A stretch of 64,000 bases of DNA from Nitrospiraceae bacterium (GCA_012517735.1 JAAYUK010000063.1:2671-66670), one strand, 5' to 3'; counted from the first letter of the stretch, positions 3,612-54,311 are shown. The notes: a model not told the origin generated them from the sequence alone. Numbers and translations: made by a program.

Positions 3612-3634
3612 TTGATCTGTTTCGCTCGCCGTAT

Positions 3635-19483: not shown

Positions 19484-19559
19484 GGGCGGTTAGCTCAGCT
19501 GGGAGAGCGCAGCCCTTACAAGGCTGATGTCACAGGTTCGATCCCTGTACCGCCTACCA
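19484..19559 (+). tRNA. tRNA-Val (anticodon TAC)
   Basis: Hand-folded cloverleaf: acceptor GGGCGGT/ACCGCCT, D-arm GCTC..GAGC, anticodon loop CTTACAA, T-arm ACAGG-TTCGATC-CCTGT, encoded CCA. Confidence 0.9.
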
Positions 19560-19599
19560 TTTTCTCCGGAGCATGCAGTACAATAAAGCGTTGAACGTT

Positions 19600-19676
19600 G
19601 GGGCGGTAGTTCAGTTGGTTAGAACGCCTGCCTGTCACGCAGGAGGTCGCGGGTTCGAGCCCCGTCCGCCCCGCCA
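19600..19676 (+). tRNA. tRNA-Asp (anticodon GTC)
   Basis: Acceptor GGGGCGG/CCGCCCC, anticodon loop CTGTCAC, T-arm GCGGG-TTCGAGC-CCCGT, encoded CCA. Confidence 0.9.
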
Positions 19677-19724: not shown

Positions 19725-20072
19725 ATGATTATGATAAAGTCTCTTTCAGCGCAGAGAAGTGTTTTTCACATTCTCCGTCAATAACGTGTTAATCAAAGGG
19801 ATCCCGTCCAGAATGGGCGCCGCTTCGAGCGATTTGCACCAAAAAACAGCGTGCTGAAAAACGGGGAATGGGCATGGTGAGAGCATGAAAAAGCCCCTTG
19901 TTTTGACGGTGAAAAAAGTGAACCGGTCGCACTGCATCCGGTGCGTTTTCTCACCTGCCCCACCGGTATCGGGAAACCCGTGCGGGTAGATTCTTGCAGA
20001 GTTGAGAAGTATTTCACCGGAAATAAACAAATGTACTCATGAACGGTGAAAAAACGTTCGATCATGATGAAA

Positions 20073-20300
20073 CCCAGAATTGTCATGAGCCTGGCAGGAC
20101 AGGCAACGCCGCTCAACTGCTACCCCGAAAAGTCATGGACATTTTCGGGGGCCCCGCTTCTCGGCCGGCGTCCAGCCGTCCTCCGAGGTATTCGCCTCGC
20201 ACATACATCCTGTATGTGCCACTTCGCCGAATAAATCCGCTTTGTTGCCAGCCCAGCCAGGCTCGAAGCGATTTGGGTCGAATCCAATGACAATTTTGGG
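20073..20300 (-). mobile_element. MITE copy 2 (228 bp, inverted relative to copy 1)
   Basis: Reverse strand reads CCCAAAATTGTCA...TGACAATTCTGGG. Flanked by direct TGAAA at 20068-20072 and 20301-20305. Confidence 0.8.
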
Positions 20301-20423
20301 TGAAATGGAGCATCCCGTGCGTCTGTTCGTACTGGAACGAGACATTGGATGACATTGCCTCCGATTGTTTTACGAACCGGTACCGTTTGTACAGCACAAT
20401 TTTTGTGAAGCAGCTTGAAGGGG

Positions 20424-52361: not shown

Positions 52362-54059
52362 CTATTTTTCCCTCGGATACGGCCATGCCGCAATGCCGCC
52401 TTCCATTACCCTGACATTCTTCCACCCGTTCGCTTCAAGCACCAGTGCCGCTTCATAGCCGCGCAGGGAGATCTTGCAGAACGCGATGATTTCACGATCC
52501 TTGTCAGAAGGAAGTTCCGCCAGTCGTTTCCGGAGTGCTCCGAGCGGGATGAGTGTTTCGCCGGCGCCGATACGCATCTCTTCATATTCGTCAGGACCGC
52601 GGGCATCGAGCAGAAACGGTTTTTCGCCGCGGTCGAGTTTGGTCTTTACCTCTTCAGGGGTCAGCCCCTTCAGCCGCCCAAGCAGTTTGTTTTGCATGAG
52701 GTGGGCCGTCGCAATGCCGTGGTCGATTGCGAGCGAAAACGGTGGCGCATACGGAAGGTCGGCGTTTGCCATGTCGTCGACCGTCAGATTGCCGAGGATC
52801 GCCATTGCCCATTGCGCTATCTGCCGGTTCACATTGCCGGGCCCGGCACACTGGGCGCCGAGGATTCGTCCGGTTTTCCGGTCGGCAACCAGTTTGGTGA
52901 CAAGGAGCTTCCCCTTCATGAAACCGGGCAGGTCCGGGCTTGCGTTGATCACCGATACCGCATCGAATCCGTGCTCTCTGGCCGAGCGCTCCGAGAGGCC
53001 GGTTGCGCCGGCGGAAAAATCAAAGACTTTGCAGATGCCGGTCTGGATGGTTCCCGGAAAGGTCACCCGGTTGCCGAGCACGGCGTTTTCACCCGCAACG
53101 CGTCCTTCGAGATTGGCGAGATCGCCATAGGGGGCAAGCACTTTCTTCCCGGTGATCCGGTGCGTCAGCTCCACACAGTCGCCGACAGCGTAAATGTCGG
53201 GATCGGACGTCTGCATATACTGATCGACGACGATTCCTCCCGTATCTCCGATAGCGAGTCCTGCTTTTTTCGCCAGAACGGCATTGGGCGCAACGCCGAT
53301 GGCGACCACCGCAAGCTCGCAGGGCAGTTCAGTGCCGTTCTGCAGTTTGACGCCGGTCAGCACCCCATCGTTTCCCAGAAAAGCCGCGATACCGTTGCCG
53401 GTGATCACATTGACGCCTTTGCTCCTGACATGGTTTTCGACCAGTTTTGCGATGTCGAAGTCGAGAAAGGTCAACAGCTGGGGCAGCATCTCGATGACGG
53501 TGAGTTCCAGTCCGGCAAGTTGAAGGGCTTCACAGGTTTCGATGCCGATCAATCCCTCGCCGATAATGACCGCCTTTTTGATCGTGCCGCCATCCCGCAC
53601 GGCGCGCAAATAGTCCGCATCCTGCATGGACTGGAGGGTCGTGATGCCTTTCAGGTCGGCTCCTGGGACCGGCGGCCTCCGGGGGACCGATCCGGTCGCA
53701 AGAATCAGTTTGTCGTAGGTCAGTGAGCCGGTTTCCCCCGTGAGCAGATTGGTGAAGGAAACCCGTTTCTCTGCGCGTTCGATGCTGGTCACCTCCGTCG
53801 AGACGCGCGCATCGATCCCTTTTGCGTTCAGATAGAATTTGGGATCGCGCACTACCCCGGCAGGAGTGGCAAGCAGCTGGTTGCGGTCGTCGAAGAATCC
53901 GCCGACGTAATACGGATAGCCGCATGAGGCCATGGAGAGCTCCGGGCCCTTCTGGAGTAAAACAATCTCTGCGTGTTCATTGCAGCGTCGTGCCTTTGCC
54001 GCTGCCTTCGGTCCGGCCGCCGAGCCGCCGATAACGACAATACGCGTGGTTTGAGTCAT
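52362..54059 (-). CDS. CoA-disulfide reductase/NADH-oxidase-family flavoprotein with C-terminal rhodanese domain
   Basis: VVIGGSAAGPKAA (FAD), redox Cys in ..SMASCGYPYY.., second Rossmann motif IIGEGLIGIE, and rhodanese loop ..IAFCKISLRG. Confidence 0.85.
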   Translation of the reverse strand: MTQTTRIVVIGGSAAGPKAAAKARRCNEHAEIVLLQKGPELSMASCGYPYYVGGFFDDRNQLLATPAGVVRDPKFYLNAKGIDARVSTEVTSIERAEKRVSFTNLLTGETGSLTYDKLILATGSVPRRPPVPGADLKGITTLQSMQDADYLRAVRDGGTIKKAVIIGEGLIGIETCEALQLAGLELTVIEMLPQLLTFLDFDIAKLVENHVRSKGVNVITGNGIAAFLGNDGVLTGVKLQNGTELPCELAVVAIGVAPNAVLAKKAGLAIGDTGGIVVDQYMQTSDPDIYAVGDCVELTHRITGKKVLAPYGDLANLEGRVAGENAVLGNRVTFPGTIQTGICKVFDFSAGATGLSERSAREHGFDAVSVINASPDLPGFMKGKLLVTKLVADRKTGRILGAQCAGPGNVNRQIAQWAMAILGNLTVDDMANADLPYAPPFSLAIDHGIATAHLMQNKLLGRLKGLTPEEVKTKLDRGEKPFLLDARGPDEYEEMRIGAGETLIPLGALRKRLAELPSDKDREIIAFCKISLRGYEAALVLEANGWKNVRVMEGGIAAWPYPREK

Positions 54060-54082: not shown

Positions 54083-54311
54083 CTCAAAACTGTCATTCGG
54101 ATTCGACCGAAATCGCTCAGAGTCCGGCAGGGCAGGCAACAGAGCGGATTTATTCGGCGAAGCGGCACATACAGGACGTATGTGCCGGGCGAATACCTCG
54201 GACGACGGCTGGACGCCGTCCGGGAAGCGGGGCCTCCGAAAATGTCGGAGACTTTTCGGGGTGGCAGTTGAGCGGCGTTGCTTGCCGTGCCGAGCTAATG
54301 AGAATTCTCGG
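54083..54311 (+). mobile_element. MITE copy 3 (229 bp)
   Basis: CTCAAAACTGTCA...TGAGAATTCTCGG, flanked by direct TTTAT at 54078-82 and 54312-16. The near end lies 23 bp upstream of the flavoprotein start codon. Confidence 0.78.

Follow-up and report, generated by a model that had tools for sequence, protein, structure and literature searches.

The three related repeats in the window (the whole stretch of DNA analysed, 64,000 nucleotides from an uncultured member of the Nitrospirota, class Thermodesulfovibrionia) are very probably copies of a MITE that is moved in trans by an IS1380-family DDE transposase and that carries a captured, pre-existing module of the TwoAYGGAY type. Such a transposase would recognise the 17-nt ends (CCCRRAATTGTCATTRG) and insert the element at W-T-N-A-W sites through a 5-bp staggered cut, and the cargo would be a structured module that was already widespread, housed in other shells in other genera, rather than the remnant of an IS; an IS1380-type element probably captured this module by end misrecognition and then lost its transposase gene. 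The sequence-only reading of the same DNA had set transposition against a conserved RNA gene. That opposition does not hold, given that the interior covaries strongly and occurs in 70 of the 111 genera of the order independently of the ends; the repeat is a mobile element and a conserved structured module at once. Likewise, the claim of a novel family stands for the shell more than for the cargo.

Inspection of the window placed the copies on the positions and strands originally proposed (Table 1), and the rest of the local description was borne out as well. The left ends read CCCCAAATTGTCA (copy 1), CCCAAAATTGTCA (copy 2), and CTCAAAACTGTCA (copy 3), and the right ends TGACAATTCTGGG (copy 1), TGACAATTCTGGG (copy 2), and TGAGAATTCTCGG (copy 3); a perfect direct 5-mer repeat flanks each copy (TTGAT, TGAAA on the plus strand, which is TTTCA on the element's strand, and TTTAT); all three copies are intergenic; and the interior helices, together with the hairpin GGCACATAC-AGGAY-GTATGTGCC, are found in the copies. 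Compensatory changes between copies also exist, at columns 44/213 (UA 13, UG 10, CG 9) and 51/206 (AU 17, GC 15, GU 6) of alignment A2. The inverted ends of the window copies comprise 13-17 nt, the mean column identity of the three is 85%, and they differ substantially only in a 42-nt internal hairpin, which copy 1 lacks. Copy 1 has an AraC-type regulator on one side and an unnamed ORF on the other, copy 2 separates a pair of tRNA genes from the 3' end of an aminotransferase gene, and copy 3 begins 23 bp past the start codon of a CoA-disulfide-reductase/rhodanese gene, which occupies 52362-54059 on the minus strand. The tRNA genes beside copy 2, tRNA-Val(TAC) and tRNA-Asp(GTC), occupy window positions 19484-19673, approximately 400 bp from the element.

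Table 1. Coordinates of the three window copies and their parts (positions counted from the first letter of the window; R1, covariance model of the core)
Feature	Start	End	Strand	Details
Copy 1, left target-site duplication	3420	3424	+	TTGAT; same 5-mer at 3612-3616
Copy 1, short form	3425	3611	+	187 bp, without the 42-nt third hairpin
Copy 1, left terminal inverted repeat	3425	3441	+	CCCCAAATTGTCATTGG; terminus shared with the L130 IS1380-family element
Copy 1, structured core module	3476	3584	+	Basal stem, hairpins with AGGAU and UGGAU loops; R1 129.5 bits, E = 3e-33
Copy 1, right terminal inverted repeat	3595	3611	+	CTAGTGACAATTCTGGG
Copy 1, right target-site duplication	3612	3616	+	TTGAT
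Copy 2, target-site duplication	20068	20072	-	TTTCA on the element's strand
Copy 2, long form	20073	20300	-	228 bp; locus of the sequence-only reading
Copy 2, structured core module with optional third hairpin	20102	20250	-	R1 90.4 bits on 20145-20250; 3' limit read from the sequence
Copy 2, optional 42-nt hairpin P4	20116	20157	-	GCGGGGCCCCCGAAAATGTCCATGACTTTTCGGGGTAGCAGT; presence/absence between the 186- and 228-bp classes
Copy 2, target-site duplication	20301	20305	-	TTTCA on the element's strand
Copy 3, left target-site duplication	54078	54082	+	TTTAT
Copy 3, long form	54083	54311	+	229 bp
Copy 3, structured core module with optional third hairpin	54134	54283	+	R1 94.9 bits on 54134-54239; 3' limit read from the sequence
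Copy 3, optional 42-nt hairpin P4	54227	54268	+	
Copy 3, right target-site duplication	54312	54316	+	TTTAT

The host genome (G000; FtsZ 69-73% to Dissulfurispiraceae and relatives) is a metagenome-assembled genome (MAG) of 2.7 Mb in 268 contigs, in which BLAST recovered 49 copies of at least 175 bp and approximately 30 fragments; many copies sit at contig ends, as expected of a repeat that breaks assemblies. The copies fall into two size classes, of about 186 and 228 bp, and the 42-nt hairpin is the difference between them. When the genome was scanned for the 15-nt terminus, allowing three mismatches at most, some 63 elements were delimited that are bounded by the terminal inverted repeats CCCAAAATTGTCATTGG and, in reverse complement, CCSRGAATTGTCATTAG. 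They comprise 22 minis of 50-77 bp that retain just the ends plus part of one arm, a single 128-bp element, and 40 elements of 150-260 bp. Small size (50-260 bp), multiple copies, paired terminal inverted repeats, and the lack of a transposase gene are all as expected of a MITE. A coding reading was set aside: a reverse-strand frame is open through copy 2, but frame-shifting 1-nt indels, visible in the alignment, differ between copies, so reading frames are not conserved. An exact search of public genomes with a 31-mer from the core returned no match.

The case for transposition is carried by the flanks. The sequence-only reading had named beforehand, as the result that would overturn it, a lack of duplicated 5-mers at additional copies; perfect 5-bp duplications were found in 19 of the 39 copies with both flanks readable, with a one-base difference in six more, whereas re-pairing left and right flanks between copies gave 3.1 perfect matches on average and never more than 10 in 10,000 permutations, and other registers gave 0-1 flank matches. 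Its account of a non-autonomous element, present in multiple copies, bounded by terminal inverted repeats, and flanked by AT-rich duplications of 5 bp, is upheld. The duplications have a fixed length and differ between copies, as in MITEs generally, and their 5-mers fit W-T-N-A-W (TTTAT, ATAAA, TTTAA, TTGAA, and others); because the outer W positions agree in direct and not in inverted order, the duplication covers all five bases. A perfect duplication is lacking in about half of the copies; among the minis, 8 of 22 have one, and duplications also flank copies in the same-genus genome G001. One copy is nested within the internal TTTAT of another (C107:30631-30844). Head-to-tail neighbours with only the 5-mer ATAAA between them were observed at C115:27421-27607 and C179:142-327. 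These pairs and the nested copy point to insertion beside or into existing copies.

Subfamily differences apart, the copies in the host genome are approximately 99% alike. Private changes, confined to single copies, amount to about 1.2% per site and affect the core and the outer parts evenly (12.5 vs 9.8 per 1000 cells, p = 0.27). With no depletion of private changes in the core, this genome shows no sign of purifying selection there after insertion. As these changes are both few and evenly spread, the copies look like the product of a recent burst that has decayed neutrally since.

Occupancy in relatives was considered as well, since the presence of the element at the same site in all orthologous loci had been listed as evidence that would favour a vertically inherited RNA gene. 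No element lies downstream of the orthologous aminotransferase gene in same-genus genomes, where synteny is broken; this second condition, like the first, did not overturn the mobile reading. Within the species, a second MAG and nine public sequencing runs all have the element at the position of copy 2; the contigs of all nine runs encode the identical aminotransferase and stop 29-32 nt into copy 2 (window 20273-20300). The repeat breaks short-read assemblies. The copy 2 insertion is fixed in the sampled population, and neither an empty site nor a presence/absence polymorphism was encountered at this single tested site in the second MAG and the nine runs. Orthologous proteins are only about 60% identical to those of the same-genus genomes, and the flanking genes are thus too divergent for a nucleotide-level comparison of empty sites; the gene flanking copy 3 is absent from the congeners.

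These data bear directly on the proposal that vertical inheritance of small-RNA genes or terminator-like palindromes accounts for the repeats, with the ends forming an outer basal stem and the 5-mers being coincidental AT-rich context. Some observations suit it: in genome G017, where the copies are older, paralogues preserve the structure through compensatory change, with double changes at 12 pairs vs 6.6 in shuffles, and the palindromes have A-rich sequence to their left and T-rich sequence to their right; in the host genome, gene orientation is weakly biased, with the left neighbour reading into the element in 24 of 34 copies and with convergent gene pairs around 12 copies vs divergent pairs around 5. 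Nevertheless, we consider the proposal very improbable, and for the host genome it is already contradicted, by the permutation test on the 5-mers, the nested copy, the core-less minis with duplications, an identical terminus on a transposase-bearing IS, the absence of the element from the corresponding congener locus, and the near identity of copies with evenly distributed private changes.

The identity of the mobile shell follows from its termini. IS1380-family elements are characterised by CCC ends, an inverted repeat of roughly 17 nt, and an AT-rich duplication of 5 bp. The sequence-only reading had stated merely that the ends do not resemble those of Tn3-type elements; this remains correct, and the typing can be sharpened, as CCC ends, a 17-nt repeat, and a W-T-N-A-W duplication are IS1380-family traits. 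A Tn3-derived TIME was ruled out on the same features of the ends: TIMEs share with the MITE a 5-bp target duplication and a non-autonomous nature, and can form mosaic elements, but have ends of about 38 bp that begin with GGGG, whereas the ends here start with CCC and span 17 nt.

A link to a transposase was located in the genus itself, among whose genomes IS1380-family genes are found. In the sister genome G005 (MAG 'Nitrospirae bacterium X3_MaxBin.024'), the element at L130:1348-2742 has an ORF that matches NF033539 at 217 bits (cut-off 180 bits) and contains a 14-N gap. The element has the ends CCCAAAATAGTCATTAG and, in reverse complement, CCCGGAATTGTCATTAG, flanked by TTTAT / TTGAT; its right-end 17-mer, CTAATGACAATTCCGGG, is identical to that of many MITE copies. 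Ends shared with an IS1380-family element and an AT-rich duplication of 4-5 bp are both as expected of an IS1380 derivative. The same genome also holds, at L138:1171-1594 (WSNO01000005.1), a 424-bp internal-deletion derivative of this element that keeps both ends, is flanked by TTTAT / TTCAT, and represents an incipient MITE. When the G005 transposase was used as a single-protein query against public genomes, only the protein itself and its deletion derivative were retrieved, and its nearest annotated relative, at 43% identity, belongs to an IS1380-family element on Aliarcobacter plasmids with CCC ends (CCCGCATTATGCAATAG / CCCAGATTATGCAATAG) and the duplication ATAAT / ATAAT. In genome G001, at least four IS1380-family genes were observed, none with the MITE terminus in the contigs examined; one different IS1380-family element there, L135:362-2187, measures 1826 bp and has the ends TCCCAAATCCACCACCA.

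Between the MITE and the G005 element, no similarity extends past the 17-nt terminus, and the interior is not IS-derived; parentage therefore rests on the ends, the duplication size, and the target, and the MITE is not a simple deletion derivative. In other words, it resembles the IS1380 family (ISEcp1, ISPme1, IS1380) in its CC(C) start, its repeats of about 15-17 nt, and its AT-rich 5-bp duplication, and differs from IS of that family in having no transposase, a length of 186-229 bp, an unrelated interior, and no family gene in the same assembly. The host genome gave no NF033539 match to an IS1380-family transposase, although an unbinned copy is possible for a MAG of 268 contigs, and no credible pair of ends at IS-like spacing; mobilisation in trans would therefore either lie in the past or depend on an unbinned element. 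IS1380-family elements such as ISEcp1 and ISPme1 mobilise neighbouring DNA through a surrogate end, that is, by end misrecognition (PMC9330008), which offers a possible route by which foreign cargo may have come to lie between IS1380-type ends. No published IS1380-derived MITE was found in the literature searched, and such an element thus appears undescribed there, MITEs in general being ordinary.

The terminus also appears to be common to different phyla. An exact search with the left-end 20-mer returned six loci, four of which are coding coincidences (the sequence encodes PKIVIG), and the remaining two led to a MITE with the same terminus in Lewinellaceae. This repeat, in the Lewinellaceae MAG JBEIJQ01 (Bacteroidota; G041), is about 460 bp long, is present in at least 40 copies, and combines the same 20-nt terminus (CCCAAAATTGTCATTGGATT) with an unrelated interior (L113:363-382, L116:7452-7471, L126:1501-1961); no IS1380-family gene was found in that genome.

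The cargo is a module of about 110 nt, modelled as a three-way junction: two hairpins with NGGAY loops stand on a basal stem, and a third hairpin, of 42 nt, is optional. The modelled order begins with basal stem P1, followed by GAGCGG, the P2/P2a hairpin with the loop (C)A-GGA-Y(G), CCUCG, a GAG bulge, the P3a hairpin with the loop N-GGA-U, and CGAGAAUGAGCG leading back to P1; the optional hairpin sits between GAGAA and UGAGCG. The GGA is kept in both loops in all genera, usually as a stem-closed C-A/N-GGA-U/C-G. In an initial structure test on 11 short forms from five genomes, 92% of cells were paired vs 24-43% with slid partners, and the covariance model R1 was built from these 11 forms. Short forms were used for the models because MAFFT failed to align long and short cores together, and R1 misplaces the 3' end of long forms.

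A wider alignment of 17 hits from 14 genera, fitted to the model in a manner that favours pairing, gave 94.4% of cells paired vs 33-44% in slid controls. Of its 32 base pairs, 26 change on both sides, and the covariation score of 0.598 vs 0.171 in shuffles was reached by none of 500 shuffles; model fitting is unable to produce so many double changes. The module may be made as RNA, although the counts of G.U and A.C mismatches in its stems are close (14 vs 9 cells), a strand bias too weak to call, so that RNA is not proven over single-stranded DNA. Between species, the interior is conserved more strongly than its neighbouring genes are: identity to the window copies is 82-89% for those of G001, an orthologous aminotransferase being only 60% identical in protein.

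The same optional hairpin occurs in two other genera, and the 42-nt hairpin (GGGGNCCCCGAAA..TTTCGGGG) was observed solo, at a distance from any module and apparently within open reading frames, at L008:1367-1404 (G007) and L163 (G011:C9:31414-31450). Some G006 copies (L166, L167) have two additional hairpins within P2, one of them like the optional hairpin, for which reason hairpins seem to be gained and lost as units.

Searches with R1 located the module in 133 of 251 genomes of the order, and in the 70 genera mentioned above, mostly in many copies (usually at least 15 matches per genome, with scores of 65-92 bits in other genera); copy number per genome runs from 0 to at least 15, and some closed genomes have none. 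A second model, derived from the 14-genus alignment, detected the module in 67 of 401 genomes sampled across the phylum. The matches cluster in the order of the host genome; six lie outside that order but within the class, and three outside the class. The interior recurs in other genera inside different outer inverted repeats, such as TAACCCACATTATTCATAAATTTATAC... in G011 and TCTAACAAAATGA... in G006. In G017 (L192-L204), each copy was observed to have a self-complementary outer stem of its own, for example ACATTACGGAT/ATCCGTAATGT or ACAGTCATGGCA/TGCCATGACTGT; on average, 12.1 of 14 positions pair within a copy vs 8.1 of 14 between copies. An ordinary terminal-repeat transposon does not account for these copy-specific stems.

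Such variation invites the alternative that the module is mobilised via its conserved core, e.g., as a single-stranded hairpin acted on by an HUH/Y1 enzyme in the style of REP/REPIN-RAYT systems, with the IS1380-type ends being secondary here. This alternative draws on the fact that the core is the part conserved across genera as outer shells vary, on the outer stems of G017, which are unlike terminal repeats bound by a transposase, and on the wide range of copy numbers. We nonetheless regard it as unlikely, seeing that the duplications in the host genome sit exactly outside the IS1380-type ends, which also speaks against a REP/REPIN-RAYT type of movement without target duplication, and that the minis, which have the ends only, multiplied too and carry duplications; the core is therefore not needed for movement in this genome. 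Mobilisation of the IS1380-type ends in trans, with the module as passenger, remains the preferred reading for the host genome.

As for the nature of the passenger, no Rfam 15 family reached its threshold on any copy. TwoAYGGAY (RF01731) was the top family on a G017 copy, with an end-to-end alignment of 21.3 bits against a threshold of 43 bits; it gave no match on the window copies and none in 151 genomes of the order, a search whose control genomes were likewise without matches. The architecture is nevertheless that of TwoAYGGAY, with the loops (C)A-GGA-Y(G) and (C)N-GGA-U(G) and with covariation in the basal stem and both hairpins; as the score falls below threshold, the module is named TwoAYGGAY-like and is not a member by Rfam's criterion. 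Both consist of two consecutive hairpins on a long common basal stem, have GGA-centred loops (AYGGAY in TwoAYGGAY, NGGAY in the module), and are multicopy in numbers that vary strongly by genome, with mobile-element-like expansion suspected for each. Unlike TwoAYGGAY, the module is marked by invariant junction blocks of its own (GAGCGG, CCUCGGAG, CGAGAAUGAGCG) and by a 3-nt GAG bulge, is hosted by the phylum Nitrospirota, and lies inside a typed transposon with duplications. The TwoAYGGAY motif was first listed in 2010 (Weinberg et al. 2010, PMC2864571). It has since been counted at 11-23 copies per Pseudomonas genome, and up to 202, in a preprint of September 2026 that calls the expansion 'mobile-element-like', leaves its tie to mobility unresolved, and quotes the proposal that the loops bind Csr/Rsm proteins (bioRxiv 10.64898/2026.09.22.753630).

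Applied to the present module, this proposal would make it a binding RNA of the Csr/Rsm (CsrA) system, either a dispersed sponge or a portable response site, with a CsrA dimer on the two NGGAY loops. A csrA homologue is present in the host genome (C3:28119-28310). In addition, the GGA in both loops of all genera fits the known CsrA/RsmE site consensus. Distribution speaks against it: 48 of 251 genomes have both the module and csrA, 85 the module only, 51 csrA only, and 67 neither (odds ratio 0.74); families f2, f11, and f12 have many copies and no csrA, and G017 combines at least 15 copies with the lack of csrA. Since the module and csrA are unrelated across these genomes, to which incomplete MAGs add noise, dependence on CsrA is distinctly improbable, and as a general explanation it was rejected. 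For this clade at least, the missing association calls into question the sole function proposed so far.

Comparison with other structured bacterial repeats sets the element apart in a different respect. Correia/CREE, ERIC, BOX, RUP, and REPIN are likewise short, intergenic, multicopy, palindromic, and RNA-foldable, and structured bacterial repeats also show deletion variants and the modular gain and loss of internal hairpins; these families, however, have their own ends and targets (TA for Correia, none for REP). To our knowledge, no family of the Correia/ERIC/BOX/RUP/REPIN type shares its interior with differently ended elements. Here, by contrast, the cargo is conserved far beyond its shell.

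RNAs of the TwoAYGGAY type have been known since 2010 without an assigned function, and a TwoAYGGAY-like module is now found between typed ends with measurable duplications; with a candidate transposase in a sister genome, the question of mobility becomes directly testable. The presence of the module in several shells, and in 70 of 111 genera of the order, suggests that an RNA-like cargo and not a transposon is the persisting unit. What the element carries is of greater importance than its shell. More tentatively, and at rather less than an even chance in our estimation, the module could be a selfish or domesticated structured RNA, distributed across the class, that rides unrelated mobile shells and acts through a partner other than CsrA; on this view, the shells would be the IS1380-type ends in the present genome and, in others, two or more further shells of the inverted-repeat kind. 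If this is true, TwoAYGGAY-like RNAs in general would be cargo spread by several transposases, and the present genome would be the first in which the vehicle can be named.
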